A stretch of 64,000 nucleotides of DNA. It comes from Escherichia coli. GTDB taxonomy: Bacteria; Pseudomonadota; Gammaproteobacteria; Enterobacterales; Enterobacteriaceae. The notes beneath the pieces were generated by a model. That model made no database searches. It was not told the origin of the DNA and was given only the letters and a program-made list of their open reading frames with translations. Position 1 is the stretch's first letter. The number at the start of each line of letters is the position of its first letter. Both the position numbers and the translations under genes were made by a program. Positions 4,498-63,238 of the stretch are shown piece after piece. Location of the stretch: NCBI RefSeq assembly GCF_003019035.1, contig NZ_CP027447.1; one strand, written 5' to 3'.

Positions 4498-5937
4498 ATG
4501 TCAGTACCCGTTCAACATCCTATGTATATTGATGGACAGTTTGTTACCTGGCGTGGAGACGCATGGATTGATGTGGTAAACCCTGCTACAGAGGCTGTCA
4601 TTTCCCGCATTCCCGATGGTCAGGCCGAGGATGCCCGTAAGGCAATCGATGCAGCAGAACGTGCACAACCAGAATGGGAAGCGTTGCCTGCTATTGAACG
4701 CGCCAGTTGGTTGCGCAAAATCTCCGCCGGGATCCGCAAACGCGCCAGCGAAATCAGTGCGCTGATTGTTGAAGAAGGGGGCAAGATCCAGCAGCTGGCT
4801 GAAGTCGAAGTGGCTTTTACTGCGGACTATATCGATTACATGGCGGAGTGGGCACGGCGTTATGAAGGCGAGATTATTCAAAGCGATCGTCCAGGAGAAA
4901 ATATTCTTCTGTTTAAACGTGCGCTTGGCGTGACTACCGGCATTCTGCCGTGGAACTTCCCGTTCTTCCTCATTGCCCGCAAAATGGCCCCCGCTCTTTT
5001 GACCGGTAATACCATCGTCATTAAACCCAGTGAATTTACGCCAAACAATGCGATTGCATTCGCCAAAATTGTCGATGAAATAGGCCTTCCGCGCGGCGTG
5101 TTTAACCTTGTTCTGGGGCGTGGTGAAACCGTTGGGCAAGAACTGGCGGGTAACCCAAAGGTCGCAATGGTCAGTATGACAGGCAGCGTCTCTGCAGGTG
5201 AAAAGATTATGGCGACTGCGGCGAAAAACATCACCAAAGTGTGCCTGGAATTGGGGGGTAAAGCACCGGCTATCGTAATGGACGATGCCGATCTTGAACT
5301 GGCAGTCAAAGCCATCGTTGATTCACGCGTTATTAATAGTGGGCAAGTGTGTAACTGTGCAGAACGTGTTTATGTACAGAAAGGCATTTATGATCAGTTT
5401 GTCAATCGGCTGGGTGAAGCGTTGCAGGCGGTTCAATTTGGTAACCCCGCTGAACGCAACGACATTGCGATGGGGCCGTTGATTAACGCCGCGGCGCTGG
5501 AAAGGGTCGAGCAAAAAGTGGCGCGCGCAGTAGAAGAAGGGGCGAGAGTGGCGTTGGGTGGCAAAGCGGTAGAGGGGAAAGGATATTATTATCCGCCGAC
5601 ATTGCTGCTGGATGTTCGCCAGGAAATGTCGATTATGCATGAGGAAACCTTTGGCCCGGTTCTGCCGGTGGTCGCATTTGATACGCTGGAAGAGGCTATC
5701 TCAATGGCGAATGATAGTGATTACGGCCTGACCTCATCAATCTATACCCAAAATCTGAACGTCGCGATGAAAGCCATTAACGGGCTGAAGTTTGGTGAAA
5801 CTTACATCAACCGTGAAAACTTCGAAGCTATGCAAGGCTTCCACGCCGGATGGCGTAAATCTGGTATTGGCGGCGCAGATGGTAAACATGGCCTGCATGA
5901 ATATCTGCAGACCCAGGTGGTTTATTTACAGTCTTAA
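4498..5937 (+). CDS. aldA: Lactaldehyde dehydrogenase (NAD-dependent aldehyde dehydrogenase)
   Basis: 479-aa ORF; aldehyde dehydrogenase catalytic Cys/Glu context ([15 protein letters not shown]); synteny. Confidence 0.93.
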   Translation: MSVPVQHPMYIDGQFVTWRGDAWIDVVNPATEAVISRIPDGQAEDARKAIDAAERAQPEWEALPAIERASWLRKISAGIRKRASEISALIVEEGGKIQQLAEVEVAFTADYIDYMAEWARRYEGEIIQSDRPGENILLFKRALGVTTGILPWNFPFFLIARKMAPALLTGNTIVIKPSEFTPNNAIAFAKIVDEIGLPRGVFNLVLGRGETVGQELAGNPKVAMVSMTGSVSAGEKIMATAAKNITKVCLELGGKAPAIVMDDADLELAVKAIVDSRVINSGQVCNCAERVYVQKGIYDQFVNRLGEALQAVQFGNPAERNDIAMGPLINAAALERVEQKVARAVEEGARVALGGKAVEGKGYYYPPTLLLDVRQEMSIMHEETFGPVLPVVAFDTLEEAISMANDSDYGLTSSIYTQNLNVAMKAINGLKFGETYINRENFEAMQGFHAGWRKSGIGGADGKHGLHEYLQTQVVYLQS

Positions 5938-5947
5938 TGAGTGGAAG

Positions 5948-5970
5948 AGGCGGAGGTTTTTCCTCCGCCT
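5948..5970. terminator. Bidirectional hairpin between convergent aldA and gapC
   Basis: aggcggagg-ttttt-cctccgcct perfect inverted repeat. Confidence 0.6.
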
Positions 5971-5977: not shown

Positions 5978-6979
5978 TCAGAGTTTAGCGAATTTTTCGA
6001 GGGTGCGAATGAGCTGTGTGACGAAGCCATATTCGTTATCGTACCAGGCGACCGTTTTCACCAGTTGTAAATCGCCCACGGCGGTAATTTCCGTTTGCGT
6101 GGCATCAAACACCGAACCGAAATGGCTGCCAATGATATCGGAAGAGACTATTTCTTCATCGGTATAACCAAATGACTCGTTATTGGTGGTTGCTTGTTTA
6201 AGTGCGTTATTCACCTCTTCGGCAGTCACTTTTTTTCCGAGAATGGACACCAGCTCAGTGACCGAACCTGTTTTCACCGGCACGCGTTGCGCATGACCTT
6301 TCAGTTTGCCGCTCAGTTCCGGGATCACCAGACCAATGGCTTTTGCCGCACCTGTAGTGTGGGGAATGATATTTTCTGCCGCTGCACGTGAAGCGCGTAG
6401 ATCTTTACCTCGCGGACCATCCACCAGTGACTGAGTGCCGGTATAGGCATGAATGGTCGTCATCGTGCCGACTTCTATTCCGAAACTGTCGTGCAAGGCT
6501 TTGGCCATCGGTGCAAGACAGTTAGTGGTGCATGACGCCACGGAAACAATGGTGTCGTTGCCATCCAGTGTGTCGTCATTGACGTTATAAACGATGGTTT
6601 TCATTTCACCGGCAGGGGCGGAAATCAACACCTTCTTCGCACCAGCATCAAGGTGCGCCTGCGATTTCTCGGCGGAGGTATAAAAGCCAGTACATTCGAC
6701 AATGATTTCTGCGCCTTTCGCTTTCCATGGAATATTTTTAGCCTCTTTTTCGGCGTAAACCGCGATACTTTTTCCATCAACGATAAGTGAATCTTCCGTA
6801 AAATCAACGCTCCAGGGGAACGGTCCGTAGTTTGAATCATGTTTCAACAGGTAGGCGAGAATTTTTGGGGAAGTGAGATCATTAATAGCAACAATGTCTA
6901 TGTTGCTTTTGACTTCAAGTAATCGACGCAACACCAGTCGACCGATACGACCAAAACCGTTAATACCAACTTTACTCAT
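5978..6979 (-). CDS. gapC: Glyceraldehyde-3-phosphate dehydrogenase C, intact 333-aa frame
   Basis: Uninterrupted 333-aa ORF with GAPDH motifs (NGFGRIGR N-terminus, SCTTNCLAP active-site Cys region). Confidence 0.9.
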
Positions 6980-7167
6980 GGTCTTCTCCTGTCAGGAACG
7001 TTCGGATGAAAATTGATCCTTTCCAGGCTTAGACCAGGATGGCGGGATGGGCAATCTACATTCTTGCCGTGAAACGTAACGTACTGAAAACGGGTGAACA
7101 ATATTTAATGAAATTTTAAGAAAAGCTCGTTATGTTAACGGAAAATTATGTTAAAGCAGGAAATGTT

Positions 7168-7698
7168 ATGGAAAGTAAATATTCAAGGTTACAAATCGGC
7201 ATTCACTGGCTGGTCTTTTTGCTGGTTATCGCAGCGTATTGCGCAATGGAGTTTCGTGGTTTTTTCCCACGTGGCGATAGGCCGCTTATCAACATGATTC
7301 ATGTTTCCTGTGGCATCTCAATTCTCGTGCTGATGGTTGTTCGTCTTTTGTTAAGGCTTAAATACCCAACTCCGCCGATTGTACCTAAACCAAAACCGAT
7401 GATGACGGGACTGGCGCATTTGGGACATTTGGTGATCTATCTCCTGTTTATTGCGCTGCCAGTGATTGGTTTGGTGATGATGTATAACCGGGGCAACCCG
7501 TGGTCTGCGTTTGGTATGACAATGCCTTATGCAGCAGAGGCCAATTTCGAACGGGTTGATAGCTTAAAGTGGTGGCATGAGACGCTGGCGAATCTGGGAT
7601 ATTTTGTCATCGGGTTGCACGCTGCGGCTGCACTGGCACACCACTATTTCTGGAAGGACAACACACTTCTACGCATGATGCCGCGTAAACGTTCCTGA
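7168..7698 (+). CDS. cybB: Cytochrome b561
   Basis: ORF 7132-7698; internal Met at 7168 gives the 176-aa protein beginning MESKYSRLQ; multiple TM helices. Confidence 0.85.
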   Translation: MESKYSRLQIGIHWLVFLLVIAAYCAMEFRGFFPRGDRPLINMIHVSCGISILVLMVVRLLLRLKYPTPPIVPKPKPMMTGLAHLGHLVIYLLFIALPVIGLVMMYNRGNPWSAFGMTMPYAAEANFERVDSLKWWHETLANLGYFVIGLHAAAALAHHYFWKDNTLLRMMPRKRS

Positions 7699-7704: not shown

Positions 7705-7772
7705 TTTAAAGAAAACGCCTGTACTAAAACCGACCCGCGGTACAGGCGAAGAGTACGGGCCTACATCGGAAG
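7705..7772 (-). ncRNA. rydC: Candidate small RNA RydC with its own minus-strand terminator
   Basis: Minus-strand sequence cttccgatgtaggcccgtactcttcgcctgtaccgcgggtcggttttagtacaggcg followed by a T-run; matches recalled RydC sequence and its position between cybB and ydcA. Confidence 0.5.
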
Positions 7773-8187: not shown

Positions 8188-8347
<160 letters not shown>

Positions 8348-8735
8348 TTTGCCGGATGGCGGGTAAGAGGCTAAGATCTGAATTGCTAGGTTCATTCGTT
8401 GGCCTCGGTTGATAGAAATATCGGTCGGGGCCTTCGTCTTTCTGATTCCCGGTTAGCCTGAAAACAGAAAGTCTCAGGCACCCGTGAGCATCCTATGTGG
8501 TTTCCTTAGGGACGAAAATAATCACCTGACGAAATTGCGTGCTGTTTTCCAGAATTTTTCGTCATTCGGGTTAGCCGGTTTAGCCATTCGTTACTCTCTT
8601 CATTCCAATAGCATTAATTTTCTCTGCAATAATTGTTGTAAAAATGTGACGCAAAGAGGTTTTTGGTCATAAGTAATTACCGTCAAGTGCCGATGACTTT
8701 CTATCAGGAGTAAACCTGGACGAGAGACAACGGTA

Positions 8736-19401: not shown

Positions 19402-19426
19402 GCGCCATCGTTAGATGGCGCTTTTT
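19402..19426 (+). terminator. Rho-independent terminator after ydcL
   Basis: gcgccatc-gtta-gatggcgc followed by ttttt. Confidence 0.6.
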
Positions 19427-19477
19427 ATCCGGTGCGCCGTAAAACCCCGTCCTTCAGGGCGGGGATATAAGGCGCGG

Positions 19478-19917
19478 TTTTGCACCTGACCAGGTGTTTG
19501 CTGTTGTTCAATGTATTGGCGGATGACGGATATTGGCGCACCTCCGCAGCTACTGGCAAAATAGCCAGGACTCCACAAAACGCCTTTGTAGTAATACCTG
19601 ACTGCAATATCTGGTCGATCTCGTCGCAGTAACCTACCCGATACGCCTTTGAGGCTGTTTACCAGACTGGATATCGCCAGTTTGGGAGGTTAGTTAATTA
19701 ACAAATGGACGTGATCTGGTTCGCCATCCATTTCAACCAGTTCAGCTTCAAAATCAGCACATACATTTGAAAAGTAAGTGCGTAGTTTTTCTGTCGCGTC
19801 ATGGTCAAAAATCTGGCGTCGGTATCTGGTGACAAAGACCAGATGAACATGCATCAGGAAAACACAATGCCTTCCACGCCGGATATCGGTTTCTTTTTTC
19901 ACAGACCAAAGTATCAT
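19478..19917 (-). pseudogene. insP: IS200-type Y1 (HuH) transposase tnpA, disrupted by frameshifts
   Basis: N-terminal 75 codons (19693-19917) carry HVHLVFVTRYRR and the HuH motif DHVHLLI and then stop; downstream minus-strand frames give SLVNSLKGVSGRLLRRD and LWSPGYFASSCGGAPISVIRQYIEQQ in two different frames. Confidence 0.7.
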
Positions 19918-19924
19918 TTGACCT

Positions 19925-21133
19925 GTGAAACGATTACAGGCATTTAAATTCCAGTTAAGACCAGGTGGTCAACAGGAGTGTGAAATGAGGCGCTTCGCAG
20001 GCGCATGTCGTTTCGTTTTCAATCGTGCTCTGGCACGTCAGAATGAGAATCATGAGGCCGGTAATAAATACATCCCTTACGGGAAAATGGCTTCCTGGCT
20101 GGTTGAGTGGAAAAATGCCACTGAAACGCAATGGCTTAAAGATTCTCCCTCACAGCCATTGCAACAGTCACTGAAAGACCTTGAGCGGGCTTACAAAAAC
20201 TTCTTCCGGAAGCGGGCTGCTTTTCCCCGATTCAAAAAGCGGGGACAGAATGATGCATTCCGCTACCCGCAGGGCGTTAAGCTCGATCAGGAAAACAGCC
20301 GTATTTTTCTGCCGAAACTGGGCTGGATGCGCTACCGGAATAGCCGTCAGGTCACGGGTGTTGTGAAAAATGTCACTGTCAGCCAGTCCTGCGGTAAGTG
20401 GTACATCAGTATTCAGACAGAAAGTGAAGTATCCACTCCGGCTCACCCTTCAGCATCAATGGTCGGGCTGGATGCTGGCGTGGCTAAACTCGCCACGCTG
20501 TCAGATGGCACAGTCTTTGAGCCTGTAAACAGTTTTCAGAAAAACCAGAAGACGCTGGCGAGACTTCAGCGACAGTTAAGCCGCAAGGTCAAATTCAGCA
20601 ACAACTGGCAGAAGCAGAAACGCAAAATACAGCGACTGCATTCCTGTATCGCAAATATCCGCAGGGACTACCTTCACAAAGTCACAACGGCCGTCAGCAA
20701 AAACCACGCAATGATAGTCATTGAGGATTTGAAGGTCAGCAACATGTCAAAGTCAGCAGCGGGTACGGTCAGCCAGCCGGGGCGCAATGTCCGGGCAAAA
20801 TCAGGTTTAAACCGTTCGATACTGGATCAGGGCTGGTATGAAATGCGCCGCCAGCTTGAGTACAAGCAGCTCTGGCGTGGCGGTCAGGTGCTTGCTGTTC
20901 CGCCAGCGTATACAAGCCAGCGTTGCGCGTACTGTGGTCATACAGCGAAAGAGAACCGCCTGTCACAAAGTAAATTCAGATGCCAGGTATGTGGATATAC
21001 AGCGAACGCCGATGTAAATGGCGCTCGTAACATTTTAGCGGCGGGGCACGCCGTTCTTGCCTGTGGAGAGATGGTGCAGTCAGGCCGCCCGTTGAAGCAG
21101 GAACCCACCGAAATGATTCAGGCGACAGCCTGA
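19925..21133 (+). CDS. insQ: TnpB-family (OrfB/IS605-type) protein, RuvC-like RNA-guided nuclease family
   Basis: 402-aa intact ORF; N-terminal FKFQLRPGG...RFVFNRAL motif and C-terminal zinc-finger-like CAYCGH/CQVCG cysteine pairs typical of TnpB. Confidence 0.85.
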
Positions 21134-25493: not shown

Positions 25494-25574
25494 ACACACG
25501 GAGGTAAAAAAATCGACGCCGTCCAGCTCGCGGCTAAGGCGCTTGGCAAAGAGTTATCACTGGTGATGGTTTAA
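25494..25574 (+). pseudogene. hicB: 3'-terminal remnant of an XRE-HTH antitoxin gene (hicB-like); no hicA and no hicB body present
   Basis: In-frame tail ...KKIDAVQLAAKALGKELSLVMV* ending at 25574 in the yncJ-ydcR intergenic region, with no start codon or N-terminal domain upstream. Confidence 0.45.
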
Positions 25575-35912: not shown

Positions 35913-36578
35913 ATGCCTGGAACGGGAAAAATGAAACATGTCAGTTTGACTCTGCAGGTTGAGAACGACCTGAAACATCAGCTTAGTATTGGCGCATTAA
36001 AACCTGGCGCACGCCTGATTACTAAAAATCTGGCGGAGCAATTAGGTATGAGTATTACACCTGTGCGTGAAGCATTATTACGTCTGGTTTCGGTGAATGC
36101 GCTTTCTGTCGCACCAGCGCAAGCATTTACAGTTCCGGAAGTGGGGAAACGTCAATTAGACGAAATCAATCGGATCCGCTACGAGCTGGAATTAATGGCA
36201 GTTACTCTGGCTGTTGAAAACCTCACCCCGCAAGACCTGGCGGAACTCCAGGAATTGCTTGAGAAATTACAGCAGGCGCAAGAAAAGGGCGACATGGAAC
36301 GAATCATTAATGCGAGCAGGCTATTTCGCTTAGCAATTTATCATCGTTCAAATATGCCCATTCTGTGTGAGATGATTGAGCAACTGTGGGTCAGGATGGG
36401 ACCTGGTTTACATTATCTCTATGAAGCGATTAATCCAGCGGAATTACGGGAGCGTATAGCAAACTATCATCTATTACTCGCCACGCTAAAAGCAAAAGAC
36501 AAAGAGGGATGCAGACATTGTCTTGCTGAAATTATGCAACAGAATATTGCTATTCTATACCAGCAATACAATCGTTAA
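35913..36578 (+). CDS. mcbR: GntR-family transcriptional regulator
   Basis: ORF 35856-36578; start at MPGTGKMKHVSL gives 221 aa; GntR HTH plus FCD domain. Confidence 0.88.
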   Translation: MPGTGKMKHVSLTLQVENDLKHQLSIGALKPGARLITKNLAEQLGMSITPVREALLRLVSVNALSVAPAQAFTVPEVGKRQLDEINRIRYELELMAVTLAVENLTPQDLAELQELLEKLQQAQEKGDMERIINASRLFRLAIYHRSNMPILCEMIEQLWVRMGPGLHYLYEAINPAELRERIANYHLLLATLKAKDKEGCRHCLAEIMQQNIAILYQQYNR

Positions 36579-42803: not shown

Positions 42804-43623
42804 AAGGATAAATGGCGTTCTCTGTATTTATTCGCAATTATCTGTAGGACAAATATGGAGAGCTTGATGAGTCAGAGCTAAAACAGCAATTGATTAATAA
42901 ACATGTTGATTTATTCAAGAAAATGGATGTATTTTAAATATTGATTCTTAATATAACCTAATCAATAGATTATCACGTGAGAGCTGCACATTATTGGAGG
43001 GGCAGGGGAAAACACCATTTTGGGAACAATGCATCAGGTACTCTTACCACTGAAGCAAGATCATCCGGGCACCAGGTGGTGGTGCAGTGCTTTGGAAATG
43101 GTCCCCTCGGGGGAGTTGTCATTATTTTCTATGCTATTTGCTTATTATATTCATCAGGTGAATTTAATAAATTCCTAATTTGAAATATCCACTATTAAGC
43201 TAGTGTTTAACGACGTTAAGATGGCAATGTGCAGATCATGTTATCAGGGTGGGGCGGTAGCGTATATTCCTTATACAAACCATCATTCATTTCAATGATT
43301 GTTATTGAATTATTTATTGTTGTGAATAAAAAGACATTATGAATATTGGTTTGACTTTGCATATCAGGTTTTTTATTACTCGCTGTAATGTACGAGCCTG
43401 TCGTGAATAACGTCGAGAACCCATCCGTTGCGTTTGTGATTATTTTGTTGACTAAACAGACACCCGTTTCTCTGAAGTAAAATCCCAGACTAAATCATCA
43501 CATAACCATGACATTTTTCTGATATTCCCCGGTAACGCCAGATGTCGACTCGCTTATCTCATCCGCCCGACATGTTGTACATGCAATATGTGCGGATTAT
43601 TATTCATTTTCACGGAGGTTGCT

Positions 43624-45732
43624 ATGTCAACCGGATTACGTTTCACGCTGGAAGTGGACGGCCTGCCACCGGACGCGTTTGCGGTGGTTTCCTTTCATCT
43701 CACCCAGTCACTCTCTTCACTTTTTTCCCTTGACCTTTCTCTGGTCAGTCAGCAGTTTCTCTCCCTTGAATTTGCGCAGGTGCTGGACAAAATGGCCTAC
43801 CTGACGGTATGGCAGGGCGATGACGTACAGCGCCGGGTGAAAGGCGTGGTGACCTGGTTTGAACTCGGGGAGAACGACAAAAACCAGATGCTGTACAGCA
43901 TAAAGGTGCGCCCGCCGCTGTGGCGGGCAGGACTGCGTCAGAACTTCCGTATCTTCCAGAACGAGGACATCAGAAGCATCCTCGGCACCATACTGCAGGA
44001 AAATGACGTCACGGAGTGGAGTCCGCTGTTCAGCGAGCCGCATCCTTCCCGTGAGTTTTGTGTCCAGTACGGCGAAACCGATTACGATTTCCTGTGCCGG
44101 ATGGCGGCGGAGGAAGGCATCTTCTTTTATGAGGAGCACGCGCAAAAAAGTACCGACCAGAGCCTGGTCCTGTGCGACACCGTGCGTTATCTGCCGGAGT
44201 CCTTTGAGATCCCCTGGAATCCGAACACCCGTACCGAGGTGAGCACCCTATGCATCAGCCAGTTCCTCTACAGCGCACAAATCCGCCCATCTTCCGTGGT
44301 GACCAAAGACTACACCTTTAAACGACCCGGCTGGGCAGGGCGTTTTGATCAGGAAGGCCAGCACCAGGATTACCAGCGCACACAGTATGAAGTGTATGAC
44401 TACCCCGGACGTTTCAAGGGTGCCCACGGGCAGAACTTTGCCTGCTGGCAGATGGATGGCTGGCGAAACAACGCAGAAGTGGCGCGCGGAACAAGCCGTT
44501 CGCCGGAGATATGGCCGGGACGGCGAATTGCGCTGACGGGGCATCCGCAGGCGAACCTGAACCGGGAATGGCAGGTGGTGGCAAGTGAACTGCACGGCGA
44601 GCAGCCGCAGGCGGTGCCGGGACGCAGTGGTTCAGGTACCACGCTGAATAACCACTTTGCGGTAATACCGGCAGACAGAACATGGCGGCCACAGCCGTTG
44701 CTGAAACCGCTGGTGGACGGCCCGCAGAGCGCCGTCGTGACGGGACCGGCAGGAGAAGAAATCTTCTGTGATGAACATGGCCGCGTGCGGGTGAAATTTA
44801 ACTGGGACCGTTATAACCCGTCAAACCAGGACAGTTCATGCTGGATCCGTGTGGCACAGGCGTGGGCAGGCACCGGGTTTGGTAACCTGGCGATACCGCG
44901 TGTGGGTCAGGAGGTCATTGTGGACTTCCTCAACGGCGATCCGGACCAGCCGATTATTATGGGGCGCACCTACCACCAGGAAAACCGCACCCCCGGCAGC
45001 CTGCCGGGAACAAAGACGCAAATGACCATTCGTTCAAAAACCTATAAGGGCAGCGGGTTTAATGAACTGAAGTTTGACGATGCGACAGGGAAAGAACAGG
45101 TCTACATCCACGCGCAGAAGAACATGAACACCGAGGTGCTGAATAACCGCACCACGGATGTGATAAACAACCATGCTGAGACCATCGGCAACAATCAGGT
45201 GATTGCGGTTACCAACAATCAGATACAGACGGTGGGCGTTAACCAGATAGAGACGGTGGGCAGTAACCAGATCATTAAAGTGGGCTCTGTTCAGGTGGAA
45301 ACGATTGGACTTGTTCGTGCGCTGACTGTGGGCGTGGCGTATCAGACGACGGTAGGTGGCATTATGAACACCTCGGTGGCCCTGATGCAGTCCTCGCAGA
45401 TCGGTTTGCATAAATCGTTGATGGTCGGGCTGGGTTATGACGTCAAAGTCGGAAATAACGTTACCTTCACCGTTGGTAAAACGAAAAAGGATGATACCGG
45501 GCAGACCGCGATTTACTCCGCCGGTGAGCATCTGGAACTCTGCTGTGGTAAGGCAAGGCTGGTGCTGACTAAGGACGGACAAATTTTTCTCAACGGCACA
45601 AAAATTCATTTGCAGGGTAAGGAGCAGGTTAATGGTGACTCACTGTTGATTAACTGGAACTGTGCAGCCTCGAAATCCCCACCGAAGACCCCTGATGAAA
45701 AGCAGGATACGCCGGATATGAGAGAGTACTGA
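43624..45732 (+). CDS. vgrG: Type VI secretion spike protein VgrG (orphan, no other T6SS core genes in window)
   Basis: ORF 43588-45732; start at MSTGLRFTLEVDGL with SD ggagg upstream; gp27/gp5-like N-terminus and C-terminal beta-helical repeats (VIAVTNNQIQTVGVNQIETVGSNQIIKVG). Confidence 0.9.
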   Translation: MSTGLRFTLEVDGLPPDAFAVVSFHLTQSLSSLFSLDLSLVSQQFLSLEFAQVLDKMAYLTVWQGDDVQRRVKGVVTWFELGENDKNQMLYSIKVRPPLWRAGLRQNFRIFQNEDIRSILGTILQENDVTEWSPLFSEPHPSREFCVQYGETDYDFLCRMAAEEGIFFYEEHAQKSTDQSLVLCDTVRYLPESFEIPWNPNTRTEVSTLCISQFLYSAQIRPSSVVTKDYTFKRPGWAGRFDQEGQHQDYQRTQYEVYDYPGRFKGAHGQNFACWQMDGWRNNAEVARGTSRSPEIWPGRRIALTGHPQANLNREWQVVASELHGEQPQAVPGRSGSGTTLNNHFAVIPADRTWRPQPLLKPLVDGPQSAVVTGPAGEEIFCDEHGRVRVKFNWDRYNPSNQDSSCWIRVAQAWAGTGFGNLAIPRVGQEVIVDFLNGDPDQPIIMGRTYHQENRTPGSLPGTKTQMTIRSKTYKGSGFNELKFDDATGKEQVYIHAQKNMNTEVLNNRTTDVINNHAETIGNNQVIAVTNNQIQTVGVNQIETVGSNQIIKVGSVQVETIGLVRALTVGVAYQTTVGGIMNTSVALMQSSQIGLHKSLMVGLGYDVKVGNNVTFTVGKTKKDDTGQTAIYSAGEHLELCCGKARLVLTKDGQIFLNGTKIHLQGKEQVNGDSLLINWNCAASKSPPKTPDEKQDTPDMREY

Positions 45733-45798
45733 TCCCGTACCTGTTCAGTATTCAGTAACAAACAAGCATTAAAAATAAACAGAAGAAGGAATTGAATC

Positions 45799-45815
45799 AT
45801 GAGCGGAAAACCAGC
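45799..45815 (+). pseudogene. 5' stub of an rhs gene (start codon plus about 5 codons) truncated by an H-repeat element
   Basis: atgagcggaaaacc matches the first 14 nt of the intact rhs at 53550 (atgagcggaaaacccgcg...), followed directly by the H-repeat left end cagggaaagatca at 45816. Confidence 0.7.
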
Positions 45816-47106
45816 CAGGGAAAGATCATCAGAAGTACACTTTTTGTACTAAACAATTCGCATTTTATGTTTAAAAATTGAGATATTCCTCATTACCTGA
45901 AGCTGTTTTTTATTGCTTATACATGATCAAATACTCCTTACATAATTAAGGAGAACAAAATGGAACTTAAAAAATTGATGGAGCATATTTCTATTATCCC
46001 CGATTACAGACAAGCCTGGAAAGTGGAACATAAATTATCGGACATTCTACTGTTGACTATTTGTGCCGTTATTTCTGGTGCAGAAGGCTGGGAAGATATA
46101 GAGGATTTTGGGGAAACACATCTCGATTTTTTGAAGCAATATGGTGATTTTGAAAATGGTATTCCTGTTCACGATACCATTGCCAGAGTTGTATCCTGTA
46201 TCAGTCCTGCAAAATTTCACGAGTGCTTTATTAACTGGATGCGTGACTGCCATTCTTCAGATGATAAAGGCGTCATTGCAATTGATGGAAAAACGCTCCG
46301 GCACTCTTATGACAAGAGTCGCCGCAGGGGAGCGATTCATGTCATTAGTGCGTTCTCAACAATGCACAGTCTGGTCATCGGACAGATCAAGACGGATGAG
46401 AAATCCAATGAGATTACAGCTATCCCAGAACTTCTTAACATGCTGGATATTAAAGGAAAAATCATCACAACTGATGCGATGGGTTGCCAGAAAGATATTG
46501 CAGAGAAGATACAAAAACAGGGAGGTGATTATTTATTCGCTGTAAAAGGAAATCAGGGGCGGCTTAATAAAGCCTTTGAGGAAAAATTTCCACTGAAAGA
46601 ATTAAATAATCCAGAGCATGACAGTTACGCAATGAGTGAAAAGAGTCACGGCAGAGAAGAAATCCGTCTTCACATTGTTTGCGATGTCCCTGATGAACTT
46701 ATTGATTTCACGTTTGAATGGAAAGGTCTGAAGAAATTATGCGTGGCAGTCTCCTTTCGGTCAATAATAGCAGAACAAAAGAAAGAGCCAGAAATGACGG
46801 TCAGATATTATATCAGTTCTGCTGATTTAACCGCAGAGAAGTTCGCCACAGCAATCCGAAACCACTGGCACGTGGAGAATAAGCTGCACTGGCGTCTGGA
46901 CGTGGTAATGAATGAAGACGACTGCAAAATAAGAAGAGGAAACGCCGCAGAATTATTTTCAGGGATACGGCACATCGCTATTAATATTTTAACGAATGAT
47001 AAGGTATTCAAGGCAGGGTTAAGACGTAAGATGCGAAAAGCTGCCATGGACAGAAACTATCTCGCGTCAGTCCTTGCGGGGAGCGGGCTTTCGTAATCTT
47101 TCCCTG
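45816..47106 (+). mobile_element. H-repeat (ISAs1-family) element, copy A, 1291 bp
   Basis: Terminal inverted repeats cagggaaaga (left) and tctttccctg (right); encodes a 378-aa transposase; nearly identical to copies at 50594-51884 and 58348-59638. Confidence 0.85.
45960..47096 (+). CDS. ISAs1-family transposase (H repeat-associated protein, YdcC/YhhI-like)
   Basis: 378-aa ORF with SD aaggag; three near-identical copies in the window. Confidence 0.88.
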
Positions 47107-48889
47107 GCTGCTGGAGTTCACGCGCGACCGCCTGCACCGGGAGACGGTGCGCAGCTTCGGCAGCATGGCAGGCAGTAATGCCGCATACGAACTGACCAGC
47201 ACATACACCCCCGCAGGCCAGTTACAGAGCCAGCACCTGAACAGCCTGGTATATGACCGTGACTACGGGTGGAGTGACAACGGCGACCTGGTGCGCATCA
47301 GCGGCCCGCGACAGACGCGGGAATACGGCTACAGCGCCACGGGCAGGCTGGAGAGTGTGCGCACCCTCGCACCGGACCTGGACATCCGCATCCCGTATGC
47401 CACGGACCCGGCGGGCAACCGGCTGCCGGACCCGGAGCTGCACCCGGACAGTACACTCACAGTGTGGCCGGATAACCGAATCACCGAAGACGCGCACTAC
47501 CTGTACCGTTACGATGAATACGGCAGGCTGACGGAGAAGACGGACCGCATCCCGGCGGGTGTGATACGGACGGACGACGAGCGGACCCACCACTACCGCT
47601 ACGACAGCCAGCACCGCCTGGTGTTCCACACGCGGATACAGCATGGCGAGCCACTGGTCGAGAGCCGCTACCTCTACGACCCGCTGGGACGGCGAATGGC
47701 AAAACGGGTCTGGCGGCGGGAGCGTGACCTGACGGGGTGGATGTCGCTGTCGCGTAAACCGGAGGAGACATGGTACGGGTGGGACGGCGACAGGCTGACG
47801 ACGGTGCAGACTGACACCACACGTATCCAGACGGTCTACCAGCCGGGGAGCTTCACGCCGCTCATCCGTATCGAGACAGAGAACGGCGAACGGGAGAAAA
47901 TGCAACGCCGCAGCCTGGCGGAGAAGTTACAGTCGGAAGGGAGTGAGGACGGTCACGGTGTGGTGTTCCCGGCTGAGCTGGTGAGGATGCTGGACAGGCT
48001 GGAGGAAGAAATCCGGGCAGACCGCGTGAGCAGTGAAAGCCGGGCGTGGCTTGCGCAGTGCGGGCTGACGGTGGAGCAACTGGCCAGACAGGTGGAGCCG
48101 GAATACACACCGGCGCGAAAAGTTCATTTTTACCACTGCGACCACCGGGGCCTGCCGCTGGCGCTCATCAGCGAAGACGGCAATACGGTGTGGAGCGGGG
48201 AGTATGATGAATGGGGCAACCAGCTTAATGAGGAGAACCCGCATCATGTGTATCAGCCATACCGCCTGCCGGGGCAGCAGTATGATGAGGAGTCGGGGCT
48301 GTACTATAACCGCAACCGGTACTATGATCCGTTGCAGGGGAGGTATATTACCCAGGATCCGATTGGGCCGGTGGGGGGGTGGAATCCCTATAGTTATGTG
48401 CTTATTAATCCAGCCCAGTTTATTGACCCAACAGGTTTAACTCAAGAGGACAATTGGACCTATGGTGAGGTAGGTAATAGCTGTGTTACGAGTCAACGCG
48501 ATTTTACTCCCCCGCCCGGACTTGCGGATATGAAAGCCAGCATTGGCGCTGCCTGCTCAAGAAACAATGCTTCCAGAAACTGCCACCCCGTAGATGGTAG
48601 TAATGCTTCTGCACCATCGGATAAAGCCGCATGGGAAAATATTCAAAATGCGACAAATGGTAAAGATTTATCTGGTGGTGGAAATATGTTTTGTGTAGGA
48701 AATGAGGACTGTGCGGTTGTTCATAGCTGTCGTGAAATAGTTAATGCTCGACACCCGGCAGGACGAGTGCGTGAACGTGTAACTCCGTTAACAACGTCAG
48801 GAACAGCAACGCTCAATGGAACAACAGTTTACTTTTATAATGATCCCCGGAATGGCAATTGTCCTGCTCACGAATATATTCCTCAATAA
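47107..48889 (+). pseudogene. rhsE: Orphan Rhs 3' fragment (rhsE-like): distal core repeats plus a divergent C-terminal toxin tip; no native start codon
   Basis: Begins abruptly at the right end of H-repeat copy A; 47107-48355 is collinear, without indels, with 55994-57242 of the intact rhs (about 93% amino-acid identity); DPIGP motif at 48356-48370; unique C-terminal about 173 codons. Confidence 0.8.
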
Positions 48890-48939
48890 AGAAAAGTGGC
48901 CAGACTAAGCTCTAGCCACATTTTTTGGAGATCCTTTTC

Positions 48940-49563
48940 ATGAAAAGGTTTTTTATAACATGTTGCGTTATGACATTATTTTTATTTGTTAAATGTAAAG
49001 CAGCGTGTGTAACTTCCTTATATGAGGTTCAGCAATCGCTCTTTACATACATTTATTTGATTAGACAAGACCCTGTTCATTTTGATTCATATATTAAGAA
49101 TGTGCATAACGAATTAAAAATATTCCATGATATTGATAAAGCAATGAATATAGCCTCAGATATGGTCAAAATTATTGATATAAAGACCCGTTTATCATTT
49201 AATAATGATTTATATATATTACAAGGGGAACGACAGTATGCAATAGTTAAGAGTGAAGGGGAAAGTAGTCAATTAAAATCATCAGCATTTATCATATCTA
49301 ATTACCCACTATTTAAAAACAAAGTTCTGTTAATTTTATCCGCTACTAGTCCCGTTCAGTTGGTTATATTGTCTTTTGATCAATGTCTTAATGTGGAGGT
49401 GTTATTTGATTCAATGTCTCCAGTTTTCGCTAAGTATAGAGAAGATATTAGTGCAACATTACCATTATGGAAGGTTATTTTGACAAAAAATGATATAGAA
49501 TTATATGAGTACCATAGAACAAATCCATACTCACTTAACAAATTATTGAGCATGTCAAAATAA
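48940..49563 (+). CDS. Putative immunity protein for the orphan Rhs-CT (AT-rich, signal-peptide-like N-terminus)
   Basis: ORF 48925-49563 (TTG) or ATG at 48940 (MKRFFITCCVMTLFLFVKCKAAC...); directly downstream of the toxin tip; low GC. Confidence 0.6.
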   Translation: MKRFFITCCVMTLFLFVKCKAACVTSLYEVQQSLFTYIYLIRQDPVHFDSYIKNVHNELKIFHDIDKAMNIASDMVKIIDIKTRLSFNNDLYILQGERQYAIVKSEGESSQLKSSAFIISNYPLFKNKVLLILSATSPVQLVILSFDQCLNVEVLFDSMSPVFAKYREDISATLPLWKVILTKNDIELYEYHRTNPYSLNKLLSMSK

Positions 49564-49748
49564 CGGTCAAGTATTCAACGTTGTAATATTATTCCTTTTG
49601 CTGAGTGTCTCGAACGGCTAAAGTTGACGTAAAATGCCACGTTTTGTGGGCAAACCGAATCGGTTAAAAAGCATGGTCCGGGAAAAGCTTAACATCAGCG
49701 CTATCGGTGCCAAATGTGCAGCAGGCCTTTCCAGCCTGATTACCAGGG

Positions 49749-50004
49749 CAGGGCGGGATCGTGAATATTGTGATGCATATCACATGAACTCCTGGTTTTA
49801 ACTTATTATTTCGGTTAAAATTTAACCACTGAAATCATTAGGATTCGAGCAAAGGGACGGCATATGGATATTCAAAATTTACTGGATTATATTTCTATAA
49901 TTCCTGATTATCGTCAGCAAGGGAAAATAAGGCATAAATTGTCAGATATTTTATTGCTCACTATATGTGCTATTATTGCCGGTTCTGATGAATGGGAGGA
50001 TATT
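49749..50004 (+). mobile_element. Truncated H-repeat variant (fragment D): left end plus first about 47 codons of transposase
   Basis: IR-like cagggcgggatcgtga at about 49749; ORF start 49864 ([48 protein letters not shown]) interrupted by the next element. Confidence 0.65.
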
Positions 50005-50593
50005 CAGGGCAAGATCATGAAAATCGTGATGTAAATCACAATTTTCAACCTGGCTTTAACTCCTTCAGGAGATTAAAATTTAACCTATGGAATAACTAAA
50101 AAGATAAAAAAGGACGCCAGATGAGTATTCAAAGTTTGCTTGATTATATTTCAGTGTTCCCTGATATACGACAACAAGGAAAGGTTAAACATAAATTATC
50201 TGATATTTTGTTTCTCACCGTATGTGCAGTAATTGCAGGTGCCGATGAGTGGCAGGAAATTGAAGATTTTGGACATGAAAGACTGGAATGGCTAAAGAAA
50301 TATGGTGATTTTGATAATGGCATTCCGGTCGATGACACCATTGCACGCGTTGTGAGTAACATTGACAGTTTGGCCTTTGAAAAGATGTTTATTGAATGGA
50401 TGCAGGAGTGCCATGAAATCACTGATGGTGAAATTATAGCAATAGATGGAAAGACCATAAGAGGCTCCTTTGATAAGGGAAAAAGGAAAGGAGCAATCCA
50501 TATGGTGAGTGCATTCTCGACTGAAAATGGTGTTGTACTGGGGCAGGTGAAAACGGAAGCCAAAAGTAATGAGATTACAGCCATTCCAGAGTT
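50005..50593 (+). mobile_element. Truncated H-repeat variant (fragment E) inserted into fragment D and itself cut by copy B
   Basis: Left end cagggcaagatca at 50005; transposase N-terminal 158 codons (ORF 50121..., diverged from copies A-C) ending where the copy B left IR starts at 50594. Confidence 0.7.
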
Positions 50594-51884
50594 CAGGGAA
50601 AGATCATCAGAAGTACACTTTTTGTACTAAACAATTCGCATTTTATGTTTAAAAATTGAGATATTCCTCATTACCTGAAGCTGTTTTTTATTGCTTATAC
50701 ATGATCAAATACTCCTTACATAATTAAGGAGAACAAAATGGAACTTAAAAAATTGATGGAACATATTTCTATTATCCCCGATTACAGACAAGCCTGGAAA
50801 GTGGAACATAAATTATCGGATATTCTACTGTTGACTATTTGTGCCGTTATTTCGGGTGCAGAAGGCTGGGAAGATATAGAGGATTTTGGGGAAACACATC
50901 TCGATTTTTTGAAGCAATATGGTGATTTTGATAATGGTATTCCTGTTCACGATACCATTGCCAGAGTTGTATCCTGTATCAGTCCTGCAAAATTTCACGA
51001 GTGCTTTATTAACTGGATGCGTGACTGCCATTCTTCAGATGATAAAGACGTCATCGCAATTGATGGAAAAACACTCCGGCATTCTTATGACAAGAGTCGC
51101 CGCAGGGGAGCGATTCATGTCATTAGTGCGTTCTCAACAATGCACAGTCTGGTCATCGGACAGATCAGGACGGATGAGAAATCCAATGAGATCACAGCTA
51201 TCCCTGAACTTCTTAACATGCTGGATATTAAAGGAAAAATTATCACAACTGATGCAATGGGTTGCCAGAAAGATATTGCAGAGAAGATACAAAAACAGGG
51301 CGGTGATTATTTATTCGCTGTAAAAGGAAATCAGGGTCGGCTAAATAAAGCCTTTGAGGAAAAATTCCCACTGAAAGAATTAAATAATCCAGAACATGAC
51401 AGTTACGCAATGAGTGAAAAGAGTCACGGCAGAGAAGAAATCCGTCTTCACATTGTTTGCGATGTCCCTGATGAACTTATTGATTTCACGTTTGAATGGA
51501 AAGGTCTGAAGAAATTATGCGTGGCAGTCTCCTTTCGGTCAATAATAGCAGAACAAAAGAAAGAGCCAGAAATGACGGTCAGATATTATATCAGTTCTGC
51601 TGATTTAACCGCAGAGAAGTTCGCCACAGCAATCCGAAACCACTGGCACGTGGAGAATAAGCTGCACTGGCGTCTGGACGTGGTAATGAATGAAGACGAC
51701 TGCAAAATAAGAAGAGGAAACGCCGCAGAATTATTTTCAGGGATACGGCACATCGCTATTAATATTTTGACGAATGATAAGGTATTCAAGGCAGGGTTAA
51801 GACGTAAGATGCGAAAAGCTGCCATGGACAGAAACTATCTCGCGTCAGTCCTTGCGGGGAGCGGGCTTTCGTAATCTTGCCCTG
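50594..51884 (+). mobile_element. H-repeat (ISAs1-family) element, copy B, 1291 bp
   Basis: Same IRs and length as copy A. Confidence 0.85.
50738..51874 (+). CDS. ISAs1-family transposase (H repeat-associated protein)
   Basis: 378-aa ORF, a few substitutions relative to copy A. Confidence 0.88.
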
Positions 51885-51896
51885 CTTTGTAATGGT

Positions 51897-52079
51897 ATGG
51901 CAGGAGGATATGAATTTGCAGTAAGTAAATTTGGTCAGTCGGCCTATGATGCCGCACAGGAAAAAGCATTAAATAACTATATGGAATTTGAAATGTTAGA
52001 TTTATTACAAAGCATGGGAGAGAATGTCAATCCAGATGAATATAAGCAGGCGCATGATAGAGTTGTTAATCCAAATTGA
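51897..52079 (+). CDS. Small ORF (60 aa) starting just outside the copy B right end; possibly the 3' remnant of a toxin tip
   Basis: ORF 51852-52079 begins inside the IS right end; first ATG outside the IS at 51897 (MAGGYEFAVSKFG...); stop overlaps the next gene. Confidence 0.35.
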   Translation: MAGGYEFAVSKFGQSAYDAAQEKALNNYMEFEMLDLLQSMGENVNPDEYKQAHDRVVNPN

Positions 52080-52093
52080 ATGCAGAGGGGAGT

Positions 52094-52657
52094 ATGTTAT
52101 TAAAACTGATAATGTTATTTTCAATATTTTTTATCCCGTTTTTGGCAGGTTGCAGTATGTTTGATGATGTTTTTGAGAAAAACTACTCATTGAGTTCTGT
52201 CGCCAGTTTTCCAGATGACGTTGATGAATTAAAAGAAATATGGTTTTTTTGTGAAAGATGTTTAAGTGATGAGCAGTGCGAAAATCATGACATTAAACAA
52301 TGTAGAGATGTAACTATTCCCGGTAGAGATGAAGCATTAAGTAAAGCTGTAGGCAGAGCCAATGTCGAAGCTGTTTACTTTCTTGTTGATGTGGCAAAAA
52401 CTGATGTCAATGGTATTACAGGTAAATATAAGGAAACACCATTAATTATTGCTGCATATTATGGAACTCAAGCACATCAGGATATAGCTGAATTTTTGCT
52501 ATTGCATGGGGCAGATATTAATAAAACTTACCCAGCCATTGGGCGAAATCCTCTAGGTGTCGCCAGATGGAAGCATAATGTCGATTTCGTTAATTTTCTA
52601 CTGAAGCATGGTGCTGAACCAGCAGTACATATGGGGTCGATTGAGAATAAAGAGTGA
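52094..52657 (+). CDS. Ankyrin-repeat lipoprotein (candidate immunity protein)
   Basis: ORF 52076-52657; ATG at 52094 preceded by gagggga; lipobox FLAGC; ankyrin-like repeats (TPLIIAAYYGTQAHQDIAEFLLLHGADIN, NPLGVARWKHNVDFVNFLLKHGAEP). Confidence 0.7.
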   Translation: MLLKLIMLFSIFFIPFLAGCSMFDDVFEKNYSLSSVASFPDDVDELKEIWFFCERCLSDEQCENHDIKQCRDVTIPGRDEALSKAVGRANVEAVYFLVDVAKTDVNGITGKYKETPLIIAAYYGTQAHQDIAEFLLLHGADINKTYPAIGRNPLGVARWKHNVDFVNFLLKHGAEPAVHMGSIENKE

Positions 52658-53100
52658 GATTTAACAAAAATGCAATTCATGCTCTCGCCTTGGGTGACGG
52701 TATTGATACTGCTTTTAAGTGTTCAGGAAAAATGGAAAGTGGTAAACCCTTAAAATCTTCGGGCAAATGGGATTACTCTGTTGGTGGGACAAATGGTGCC
52801 TTTCTTTATCTTAAAGACTATTCAAATATTTTGACGGCTGGCCACACAGGAAATCTGGCAGTTACTTTTCTTGGAAGTTACAATGCTCAATATTCAATAA
52901 ACGGAAACTCTCTGGATGTAGTTGTAACAAATTCTTCAACGATACAATCAGCGACACATCCCCCAATCCTGGAGTATACAAAATGGTGGCAGGATAATAT
53001 TGGTAATCCTTTGGATAGAAAATTTCAAAAAGGTCCCACGTCCCCAAAAACACAAACCATAAATTTACACTTTGATTTGTCATGTGCGTGCAAAAAATGA
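52654..53100 (+). CDS. Hypothetical protein, translationally coupled to flanking genes
   Basis: GTG at 52654 overlaps the upstream stop; alternative ATG at 52732; stop overlaps the downstream ATG (atga) at 53097. Confidence 0.5.
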   Translation: MRFNKNAIHALALGDGIDTAFKCSGKMESGKPLKSSGKWDYSVGGTNGAFLYLKDYSNILTAGHTGNLAVTFLGSYNAQYSINGNSLDVVVTNSSTIQSATHPPILEYTKWWQDNIGNPLDRKFQKGPTSPKTQTINLHFDLSCACKK

Positions 53101-53480
53101 AAATTTTATTTATGTTATTATTAATTATCTTGAGTGGATGTGATGGCGAAAATGATGCCAAATTTGTTGGGCAATGGCTTGCTGATATTGATGGTGATAT
53201 AAAATCAGAATTGATCGTGAAGGCAAATGGAATTTTTTATTTCAAGAATATGCCTATGGAGACAGTTTGTCGCGAGGATAAAACATATAAGGCTAATTTT
53301 TTCGGGGATTGGACTATTAATATTGACAATAGGATTGATATTTCAATGGATAATGTTAATTCTGAACGGTGTAATATTCCATCCTCGTATTTAATTAATG
53401 GGTTTTATGATGGTGGATATTTTTTATGTCAGAAAGGATTGTCTTTTTTCCAGACGGACCTGATGAGCCAGGTAATATGA
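53097..53480 (+). CDS. Small lipoprotein (candidate immunity protein)
   Basis: ORF 53082-53480; ATG at 53097 (MKILFMLLLIILSGCDGEND) with lipobox LSGC; AT-rich. Confidence 0.6.
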   Translation: MKILFMLLLIILSGCDGENDAKFVGQWLADIDGDIKSELIVKANGIFYFKNMPMETVCREDKTYKANFFGDWTINIDNRIDISMDNVNSERCNIPSSYLINGFYDGGYFLCQKGLSFFQTDLMSQVI

Positions 53481-53549
53481 TCATTTATATTAAACAATGA
53501 AAGTATTGATCGTGAGCAGATTAAATATATAAGAAATTAAGGAGATACC

Positions 53550-56500
53550 ATGAGCGGAAAACCCGCGGCACGCCAGGGTGATGCCACGCTGAAAGGCGGT
53601 CCGATAGTCCAGGGGTCAGCGGGGGTGCTGATAGGCGCGCCCACCGGCGTGGCGTGCTCGGTGTGTCCGGGCGGGATGACTTCGGGCAACCCGGTAAATC
53701 CGCTGCTGGGGGCGAAGGTGCTGCCCGGCGAGACGGACCTTGCCCTGCCCGGCCCGCTGCCGTTCATTCTCTCCCGCACCTACAGCAGCTACCGGACGAG
53801 GACGCCTGCCCCGGTGGGCGTTTTCGGCCCCGGCTGGAAAGCGCCTTCGGATATCCGCTTACAGCTACGTGATGACGCACTGATACTCAACGACAACGGC
53901 GGGCGGAGCATTCACTTTGAGCCGCTGCTGCCGGGGGAGGCGGTGTACAGCCGCAGCGAGTCAATGTGGCTGGTGCGCGGTGGTAAGGCAGCGCAGCCGG
54001 ACGGCCACACGCTGGCGCGACTGTGGGGGGCGCTGCCGCCGGATATCCGGTTAAGCCCGCATCTTTACCTGGCGACCAACAGCGCACAGGGGCCGTGGTG
54101 GATACTCGGCTGGTCAGAGCGGGTGCCGGGTACTGAGGACGTACTGCCAGCGCCGCTGCCGCCGTACCGGGTGCTTACCGGGCTGGCGGACCGCTTCGGG
54201 CAGACGCTGACGTACCGGCGTGAGGCCGCCGGTGACCTGGCCGGGGAAATCACCGGCGTGACGGACGGTGCCGGGCGGAAGTTCCGTCTGGTGCTGACCA
54301 CGCAGGCGCAGCGTGCGGAAGAGGCCCGCACCTCTTCGCTATCTTCTTCTGACCGTTCCCGCCCTCTCTCAGCCTCAGCGTTCCCCGACACACTGCCCGG
54401 TACGGAATACGGCCCCGACAGGGGCATCCGTCTTTCGGCGGTGTGGCTGATGCACGACCCGGCATACCCGGAAAGCCTGCCCGGTGCGCCACTGGCGCGG
54501 TACACGTATACGGAAGCCGGTGAACTGCTGGCGGTATATGACCGCAGCAATACGCAGGTGCGCGCTTTCACGTATGACGCGCAGCACCCGGGCCGGATGG
54601 TGGCGCACCGTTACGCGGGAAGGCCGGAGATGCGCTACCGCTACGACGATACGGGGCGGGTGGTGGAGCAACTGAACCCGGCAGGGTTAAGCTACCGCTA
54701 TCTTTATGAGCAGGACCGCATCACCATCACGGACAGCCTGAACCGGCGAGAGGTGCTGCATACAGAAGGCGGGGCCGGGCTGAAGCGGGTGGTGAAAAAA
54801 GAACTGGCGGACGGCAGCGTCACGCACAGCGGGTATGACGCGGCAGGAAGGCTCACGGCACAGACGGACGCGGCGGGACGGCAGACAGAGTACGGTCTGA
54901 ATGTGGTGTCAGGCGATATCACGGACATCACCACGCCGGACGGGCGGGAGACGAAATTTTACTATAACGACGGGAACCAGGTGACGGCAGTGGTGTCCCC
55001 GGACGGGCTGGAGAGCCGCCGGGCGTATGATGAGCGGGACAGGCTGGTAACGGAGACATCGCGCAGTGGGGACGTCATCCGGTATGCTTATGATAATCCG
55101 CACAGTGAATTACCGGCCACGACAACAGATGCGACGGGCAGCACCCGGCAGATGACCTGGAGCCGCTACGGGCAGTTGCTGGCGTTCACCGACTGCTCGG
55201 GCTACCAGACCCGCTATGAATACGACCGCTTCGGCCAGATGACGGCGGTCCACCGCGAGGAAGGCATCAGCCTTTACCGCCGCTATGACAACCGTGGCCG
55301 GTTAACCTCGGTGAAAGACGCACAGGCCCGTGAAACGCAGTATGAGTACAACGCCGCAGGCGACCTGACTGCCGTTATCACCCCGGATGGCAACCGGAGT
55401 GAGACACAGTACGATGGGTGGGGAAAGGCCATCAGCACCACGCAGGGCGGGCTGACGCGCAGTATGGAGTACGATGCTGCCGGACGTATCACCACGCTGA
55501 CTAACGAGAACGGCAGCCACAGCGACTTTAGTTACGATGCGCTGGACCGCCTGATACAGCAGGGCGGCTTTGACGGGCGGACGCAACGTTATCATTATGA
55601 CCTGACCGGAAAACTCACGCAGAGTGAAGATGAGGGGCTTGTCATCCTCTGGTACTACGATGAATCGGACCGTATTACTCACCGCACGGTAAACGGTGAA
55701 CCGGCAGAACAGTGGCGGTATGACGGCCACGGCTGGCTGAGAGAAATCAGCCACCTGAGCGAAGGCCACCGTGTTGCCGTCCACTATGGCTATGATAATA
55801 AAGGCCGCCTGACCAGTGAGCGCCAGACGGTGCATCACCCGGAGACGGGAGAGCTGCTCTGGCAGCATGAGACCGGACATGCGTACAACGAACAGGGGCT
55901 GGCAAACCGCGTCACGCCGGACAGTCTGCCGCCGGTGGAGTGGCTGACCTATGGTAGCGGTTATCTGGCAGGCATGAAGCTGGGCGGGACGCCGCTGCTG
56001 GAGTTCACGCGCGACCGCCTGCACCGTGAGACGGTGCGCAGCTTCGGCAGCATGGCAGGCAGTAATGCCGCATACGAACTGACCAGCACATACACCCCTG
56101 CAGGCCAGTTACAGAGTCAGCACCTGAACAGCCTGGTGTATGACCGTGACTACGGGTGGAATGACAACGGAGACCTGGTGCGCATCAGCGGCCCGCGACA
56201 GACGCGGGAATACGGCTACAGCGCCACGGGCAGGCTGGAGAGTGTGCGCACCCTCGCACCGGACCTGGACATCCGCATCCCGTATGCCACGGACCCGGCG
56301 GGCAACCGGCTGCCGGACCCGGAGCTGCACCCGGACAGTACACTCACAGTGTGGCCGGATAACCGCATCGCGGAGGATGCGCACTATGTCTACCGCCACG
56401 ATGAATACGGCAGGCTGACGGAGAAGACGGACCGCATCCCGGCGGGTGTGATACGGACGGACGACGAGCGGACCCACCACTACCACTACGACAGCCAGCA

Positions 56501-57803: not shown

Positions 57804-57815
57804 TGAGATTTTTTT

Positions 57816-58265
57816 ATGATGAAATATTTGATGGTTTTATTGTCTCTATTTTCTGCTTCGGTATTGGGGATGGGGCGAGTGAATGAATTGTGTGGAATAG
57901 ATAGTGTGAAAACGATAGAAATAATTAATCTTCCAGCATATGTTACCACCTTAACCCCGCTTAGCAAGGAAGGTCTCAAGAGAATATACAAACATAAAGT
58001 GGTGGTGAATGGAGTTAGCGATTTTTATGCTGGTGAGATAATTGATTTATTGCAAATGAAGTATTTCAGGAAGGAGGAGAATAACGATATAAGATGGGGG
58101 GTTGACATTGTTTCGAATAAAAATAATAAATGTGAAATTTATTTTGATGGTTTTGGTGAATGTGGAAGTGTGAATGGCATTAACGTATGTTTTGAAAAAA
58201 ATGAAATGATAGATTGGATTAAAAAAGAAATCCCTTTTCTGTCGCAAGAAATAGGTGGTCTTTAA
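57816..58265 (+). CDS. Putative cognate immunity protein with N-terminal signal peptide
   Basis: 149-aa ORF 12 nt downstream of the rhs stop; hydrophobic N-terminus MMKYLMVLLSLFSASVLG; AT-rich. Confidence 0.7.
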   Translation: MMKYLMVLLSLFSASVLGMGRVNELCGIDSVKTIEIINLPAYVTTLTPLSKEGLKRIYKHKVVVNGVSDFYAGEIIDLLQMKYFRKEENNDIRWGVDIVSNKNNKCEIYFDGFGECGSVNGINVCFEKNEMIDWIKKEIPFLSQEIGGL

Positions 58266-58322
58266 ATGGTAGGGCAATATTCAAAGACAGTATAGGTAAC
58301 TATTTGTATGGACATGTAAGGT

Positions 58323-58372
58323 CAGGGAAAGATCACGTAACGCTGCTCAGGGAAAGATCACGTAACGCTGCT
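58323..58372 (+). repeat. Perfect 25-bp tandem duplication of the H-repeat left terminus
   Basis: cagggaaagatcacgtaacgctgct occurs twice in direct tandem (58323-58347 and 58348-58372); measured from the second unit the element is 1291 bp, the same as copies A and B. Confidence 0.85.

Positions 58373-62014: not shown

Positions 62015-63238
<1,224 letters not shown>

Follow-up and report, generated by a model that had tools for sequence, protein, structure and literature searches.

An intact gapC gene in an Escherichia coli genome and its relation to the K-12 pseudogene

Laboratory Escherichia coli K-12 carries gapC, the gene for a second glyceraldehyde-3-phosphate dehydrogenase (GAPDH), as a pseudogene. 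In the 64,000-nt stretch of E. coli DNA analysed here (the window), the corresponding frame appears uninterrupted, raising the question of whether it encodes a working enzyme and whether its intactness sets this strain apart. Our analysis supports, with a probability of about 93%, the reading that the minus-strand frame is an intact, ancestral-type E. coli gapC for a phosphorylating, NAD-dependent type I GAPDH, and that the K-12 pseudogene is the derived form.

The gapC frame and its locus

Direct translation of the minus strand yielded, at exactly the coordinates assigned by an earlier sequence-only reading, the single intact frame of 333 codons that had been claimed (Table 1), with no internal stop along its length. 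That reading had named beforehand the observation that would speak against it, a frameshift or stop concealed in the minus-strand frame; both were looked for and not found, the critical A-run having all seven of its bases. In RefSeq, a sequence identical to the gene is annotated as the intact CDS WP_000048646.1 in both NZ_CP033635.1 and NZ_CP051751.1. The deduced protein scored 446.7 bits against the NCBIfam model of type I GAPDH (TIGR01534, curated cut-off 367.2) over profile positions 1-330 of 330, and it contained, each at full length, the Rossmann NAD-binding N-domain (PF00044, Gp_dh_N; residues 3-102, E = 8.6e-36) and the catalytic C-domain (PF02800, Gp_dh_C; residues 155-313, E = 6.5e-58). 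Because of this model score, the two complete domains and the RefSeq annotation, the frame is a real gene and not a chance ORF.

Table 1. Features of the gapC locus in window coordinates
Feature	Position	Strand	Details and basis
gapC CDS	5978..6979	-	ATG start, TGA stop, 333 sense codons; ORF listing and direct translation
Codon 39, gene nt 115 (A>T in K-12)	6863..6865	-	AAA (Lys) here, TAA in K-12; alignment
A7 run, gene nt 744-750, codons G248-K249-K250	6230..6236	-	A6 in K-12, frameshift; alignment
Cys150 codon TGC, catalytic nucleophile, SCTTNC motif	6530..6532	-	translation, residue check
His177 codon CAT, catalytic	6449..6451	-	translation, residue check
Shine-Dalgarno AGGAG	6986..6990	-	6 nt ahead of the gapC ATG; read from the sequence
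gapC-cybB divergent intergenic region	6980..7167	.	presumed site of the putative gapC promoter
9-bp G+C-rich hairpin AGGCGGAGG-AAAAA-CCTCCGCCT	5948..5970	.	in the 40-nt gap between convergent aldA and gapC

The gene lies between aldA (4498-5937, +) and cybB (7168-7698, +), convergent with the former and divergent from the latter; these coordinates, taken from the locus in ECCNB12-2, hold for the window as well. MG1655 has the same gene order, and its allele matches the gene at 973 of 1,002 positions, so that synteny and near-identity both identify it as the E. coli gapC orthologue. Its base composition (GC 0.479, GC3 0.485) shows no anomaly against the window GC of 0.494. A published label calls gapC 'laterally acquired', and the unremarkable composition neither supports nor excludes an ancient transfer.

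On the cybB side, a mechanical ORF call begins at ATG 7132 (7132-7698, +; 188 aa), and the RefSeq start is at 7168 (176 aa). Just 3' of cybB, Rfam places the RydC sRNA at 7709-7772 (-; 83.1 bits). It also places the hokB/sokB antitoxin RNA sok at 8332-8483 (-; 109.1 bits); both are as in K-12.

The Shine-Dalgarno sequence of gapC is invariant in seven aligned strains, and the upstream ~200 nt (aligned over window positions 6970-7180) have a mean column identity of 98% across seven diverse strains. A sigma-70 consensus scan upstream of the gene returned one weak site (7174-7145, -), where 1.8 would be expected by chance, so that the hit is uninformative; it straddles the boundary of the divergent intergenic region towards cybB. 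No other sigma-70-like site occurs on the strand of gapC, and this one also lies inside the overlap of the two versions of the cybB start. A passage in a ChIP-seq study of K-12 reports a peak of sigma-S RNA polymerase at the gapC_1/cybB region (PMC4447067). Downstream of gapC, the hairpin folds as RNA with an energy of -18.2 kcal/mol (z = -3.83 against shuffles). Neither strand provides it with a strong U tract, and a consensus terminator scan did not pick it up; its folding energy is the one feature suggesting that it is probably a transcription terminator shared by aldA and gapC.

A predicted second NAD-dependent GAPDH

The sequence-only reading had described the catalytic motifs of GapC as conserved, and a check of 13 residues from R11 to R232 agrees with it, as all were present. 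They comprise the NAD-binding residues R11, I12, D34 and S120, the catalytic residues S149, C150 (in the SCTTNC motif), T151 and H177, and the phosphate-site residues T180, T182, T209, G210 and R232. The G-x-G-x-x-G loop is likewise present at residues 5-14.

A search of PDB sequences linked the protein to an enzyme of established structure. Over its full length, GapC is identical at 332 of 333 positions to the wild-type chain of the 7C5F series, named EcGAPDH1 (PDB 7C5F, 7C5G-7C5R and 7C7K); the sole difference is conservative, V29 in EcGAPDH1 being I29 in the window. The crystallised protein carries in addition a 19-residue N-terminal tag. Both proteins share Cys150, His177, the Ps and 'new Pi' phosphate sites and the NAD-binding residues. 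The EcGAPDH1 paper does not use the name gapC, and the equivalence rests on sequence identity.

Wild-type EcGAPDH1 was purified and found active by NADH formation, with a Km for glyceraldehyde-3-phosphate (G3P) of 0.73 mM (Zhang et al. 2021, PMC8615399), a value measured on the His-tagged V29 allele at 50 C and pH 10, which are not physiological conditions. The C150A mutant was inactive, whereas C150S and H177A were impaired 10^3-10^4-fold, H177A by ~8,000-fold, and crystals trapped NAD, G3P, the thioacyl intermediate and 1,3-bisphosphoglycerate (1,3-BPG) (PMC8615399). The earlier suggestion that GapC is potentially functional thus gains support from its near-identity to an active, crystallised enzyme, and for the same reason it is about as well backed as sequence analysis allows. 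Very probably, the gapC of the window encodes a functional second GAPDH.

Following the mechanism known for this enzyme, Cys150 of GapC would attack G3P to form a hemithioacetal, from which His177 would aid hydride transfer to NAD+ to give a thioacyl-enzyme; attack of phosphate on the thioester would then release 1,3-BPG. The predicted overall reaction is the NAD-dependent oxidative phosphorylation of G3P to 1,3-BPG, as measured on the 332/333-identical protein (PMC8615399).

Intact gapC alleles are under strong purifying selection, since a comparison of nine of them, that of the window and eight others, gave a mean dS of 0.10 and a mean dN of 0.003, hence a dN/dS of ~0.03. This result bears on the possibility that the gene, its frame intact, lacks function or is silent here because of a regulatory lesion or an inactivating missense change, being a 'young' pseudogene that has still to acquire stops. 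The sigma-70 scan, with no promoter above chance, would be compatible with such a state, as would the dispensability of the gene in the ~20% of genomes that have the K-12 lesions; moreover, I29 is unique to the window allele among the nine compared. However, the I29V exchange is all that separates the protein from active EcGAPDH1, and the GapA residue aligned to position 29 is also Ile. The upstream 200 nt and the Shine-Dalgarno sequence are conserved across strains of the species, the allele family is under selection, and an unrelated isolate from chicken has exactly this allele. We therefore regard a silent gene as very unlikely, though it is the strongest of the rival explanations.

Still less probable is that GapC has the GAPDH fold and performs another job, be it that of an Epd/GapB-like erythrose-4-phosphate dehydrogenase, of an ArsJ-coupled GAPDH detoxifying arsenate, or of an NADP-dependent or non-phosphorylating enzyme. 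The shared fold does produce scores against models of such enzymes, namely 279.8 bits (NF010058) and 276.5 bits (TIGR01532) for Epd and 307.3 bits for the ArsJ-associated GAPDH (NF033735), but these stay far under the respective cut-offs of 539, 530.55 and 450, whereas that of TIGR01534 is passed. No arsJ adjoins gapC, its neighbours being aldA and cybB instead; the NAD-selecting Asp34 is present; and crystals of EcGAPDH1 contained NAD, G3P and 1,3-BPG, its assay being based on the NADH formed (PMC8615399).

We thus return to an NAD-dependent phosphorylating type I GAPDH, a description that also fits E. coli GapA (b1779). The two proteins have in common the fold, the SCTTNCLAP motif and the NAD-dependent phosphorylating chemistry. 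They are encoded at different loci, are 47% identical (155/333) and belong to different evolutionary lineages within type I GAPDH, which makes gapC, as judged from sequence, a paralogue distinct from gapA and not a duplicate of it. In the PDB search with GapC, the best non-self matches had E values of ~1e-143 to 1e-123; among the best 60 matches listed, which bear generic molecule names and no organism, no entry was recognisable as E. coli GapA.

The K-12 lesions and their distribution

In MG1655, gapC (b4493, NC_000913.3 1489713-1490713, 1,001 nt) is annotated as a pseudogene, formerly gapC_1/gapC_2. The same allele occurs in the K-12-type genome NZ_CP053603.1, where PGAP flags it as 'frameshifted; internal stop'. 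The alignment to K-12 gapC that the sequence-only reading had proposed was carried out. It revealed 29 differences in 1,002 nt (97.1% identity) at the same locus and in the same orientation, and it placed the lesions at codon 39 and in the A7 run (Table 1). With both lesions, K-12 gapC can give no full-length protein; the window gene has neither. The frameshift described for laboratory K-12 strains is therefore confirmed, preceded in the gene by a nonsense codon that had gone unmentioned. The defect is not peculiar to laboratory strains, as many field isolates have it too.

The A-run has seven bases in the window gene and in all eight of the other intact alleles sampled. It is hardly conceivable that the intact frame is an assembly artefact, a miscall masking a real frameshift. 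In favour of an artefact, the K-12 frameshift sits in a homopolymer of the kind that is error-prone in long-read assemblies, and many small indels elsewhere separate the window from SCU-301, the closest public genome. Against it, gapC is 100% identical in two independent assemblies, the A7 run recurs in 8/8 other intact alleles, and neither the K-12 SNP haplotype nor the stop codon linked to the frameshift occurs in the window.

The K-12 gapC allele, complete with its two lesions and the 27 SNPs linked to them, was also found in four field isolates. They came from raw-milk cheese in Egypt, chicken in Korea, human stool in Switzerland and pig faeces in the UK (NZ_CP042901.1, NZ_CP148409.1, NZ_CP086510.1 and NZ_CM149861.1). 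A further SNP distinguishes one of the four, and in the pig isolate one more base has been deleted. In a systematic 30-row sample of carriers of the TAA allele, ~19 were clinical, animal or environmental isolates and ~11 were K-12 derivatives. Because field isolates share the lesions with K-12 base for base, the lesions appear to have been inherited and not acquired in the laboratory, which argues, contrary to summaries in the literature, that they predate domestication. Most simply, a natural lineage gave rise to the pseudogene, K-12 inherited it from there, and its decay is still going on. The K-12 copy, with its stop at K39 and its one-base deletion in the A7 run, would then be the derived allele of one natural lineage, passed on to the laboratory strain.

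To place these alleles in the species, gapC was sought by megablast in 5,426 complete E. coli genomes and found in 5,417 of them, nearly always as one chromosomal copy. Five matches in the E. coli genome collection stood on records labelled plasmid. Codon 39 was typed with a 33-nt probe centred on it, which seeds only if that base matches. The TAA version of the 33-mer had matches in 1,154 genomes, against 3,711 for the AAA version; the ~550 genomes with neither are explained by synonymous SNPs within the probe, as exemplified by the O157:H7 allele, which is still AAA. A 47-nt probe for the A6 context matched 1,050 of the 5,426. A 48-nt probe for the A7 run gave no match, an artefact of low-complexity masking of the run and no sign that A7 is absent. 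About a fifth of complete E. coli genomes thus carry the K-12 gapC lesions.

The difference of ~104 genomes between the stop and the frameshift could represent a 'stop only' stage, or else truncated or variant alleles. In strain SCPM-O-B-7615 (NZ_CP144926.1), gapC has been destroyed independently, IS1A having replaced the 3' four-fifths of the gene together with the 3' end of aldA.

Of 40 alleles sampled systematically from the gapC ranking, 32 had 1,002 nt, six had 1,001 nt, one had 1,000 nt and one was truncated; all eight of the 1,002-nt alleles that were opened are annotated as intact proteins. At least 1,000 contigs are recorded as encoding exactly the GapC protein of the window, and the 90%-identity cluster to which it belongs holds 4,797 members, one of them from Citrobacter freundii. 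Intact gapC is the normal, majority state in E. coli, and the K-12 copy is the exception. The particular allele of the window is a minority one, found at 99% identity or more in 87 genomes. The genes flanking it have diverged from K-12 as much as gapC itself (95-99% identity per 500 nt), and the divergence of the window gapC from K-12 reflects strain phylogeny and nothing special to the gene.

The contrast between an intact gene in the wild and a broken one in the laboratory was published in 1998 by Espinosa-Urgel and Kolter, according to passages in PMC2949598 and PMC1796617. The former states, citing its reference 13, that environmental isolates have an intact gapC, expressed by preference in fresh water; the latter refers to an adaptive role in aquatic survival (Espinosa-Urgel and Kolter 1998, Mol Microbiol 28:325). 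As these passages describe it, the natural-isolate gapC of that work represents the same phenomenon as the window gene, with no substantive difference. Intact gapC is already known, genetically since 1998 and structurally since 2021. Being the majority state and in the literature since 1998, an intact gene does not distinguish this strain. The discovery value of the present gene is correspondingly small, as it represents the ordinary wild-type state of a protein whose structure and activity are already published. K-12 is unrepresentative of the species at gapC, and a second NAD-dependent GAPDH should be reckoned with when metabolic models or interpretations of knock-outs are carried over from K-12 to strains from the wild.

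A possible role of GapC, and other features of the window

GapA is the housekeeping enzyme and main glycolytic GAPDH of E. coli. We infer transcription of gapC, and a metabolic contribution of its product, in this strain, but because GapA fills the main glycolytic role and some one-fifth of genomes live without GapC, this contribution may be conditional or small.

One tentative proposal, towards which we lean less than away, is that GapC, far from being a redundant spare for GapA, is a niche-specific isozyme, serving for instance survival away from the host in the cold, in fresh water or in stationary phase. Its loss, through first the K39 stop, then the homopolymer frameshift and then further decay including the pig-isolate deletion and the IS1 deletion, would mark a large lineage of natural strains that includes K-12. 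Such specialisation would account for the very low dN/dS, and hence strong purifying selection, among intact alleles. If the proposal were true, the K-12 pseudogene would be an inherited ecological signature and not a product of laboratory domestication.

Several differences from related genomes were noticed elsewhere in the window. The window is ~99.9% identical, though not fully so, to SCU-301 (NZ_CP051751.1, reverse strand), which was isolated from a rectal swab of a healthy student in California. ECCNB12-2 (NZ_CP033635.1) matches the window at 99.1% identity over the first 19 kb, beyond which its content is different. At 19411-21133, between ydcL and ydcO, lies an IS200/IS605-type element (insQ/tnpB and tnpA, following the SCU-301 annotation), whereas ECCNB12-2 instead has an IS4 within ydcO. 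The hicA-hicB pair of ECCNB12-2 appears to be deleted from the window, where a hicB remnant of only 78 nt occupies 25497-25574, again following SCU-301. The mcbR gene (35913-36578, +) forms an intact frame of 221 aa in the window and is annotated as a pseudogene with an internal stop in SCU-301; one SNP between the two lies at 36273.

An island absent from ECCNB12-2 extends from 43588 to 59628, between yncH and yddH. It includes vgrG/tssI (43588-45732, 714 aa), an Rhs ORF (53550-57803, 1,417 aa) and three ISAs1 copies with transposase ORFs of 378 aa (45960-47096, 50738-51874 and 58492-59628). In SCU-301, many genes of the island are flagged as frameshifted, and dozens of small indels set the two sequences apart in this region, apparently a matter of differing assembly quality. 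Finally, between yddE and nhoA, a 326-aa ORF (62035-63015, -) stands where SCU-301 has an annotated transposase of IS621, an IS110-like element.
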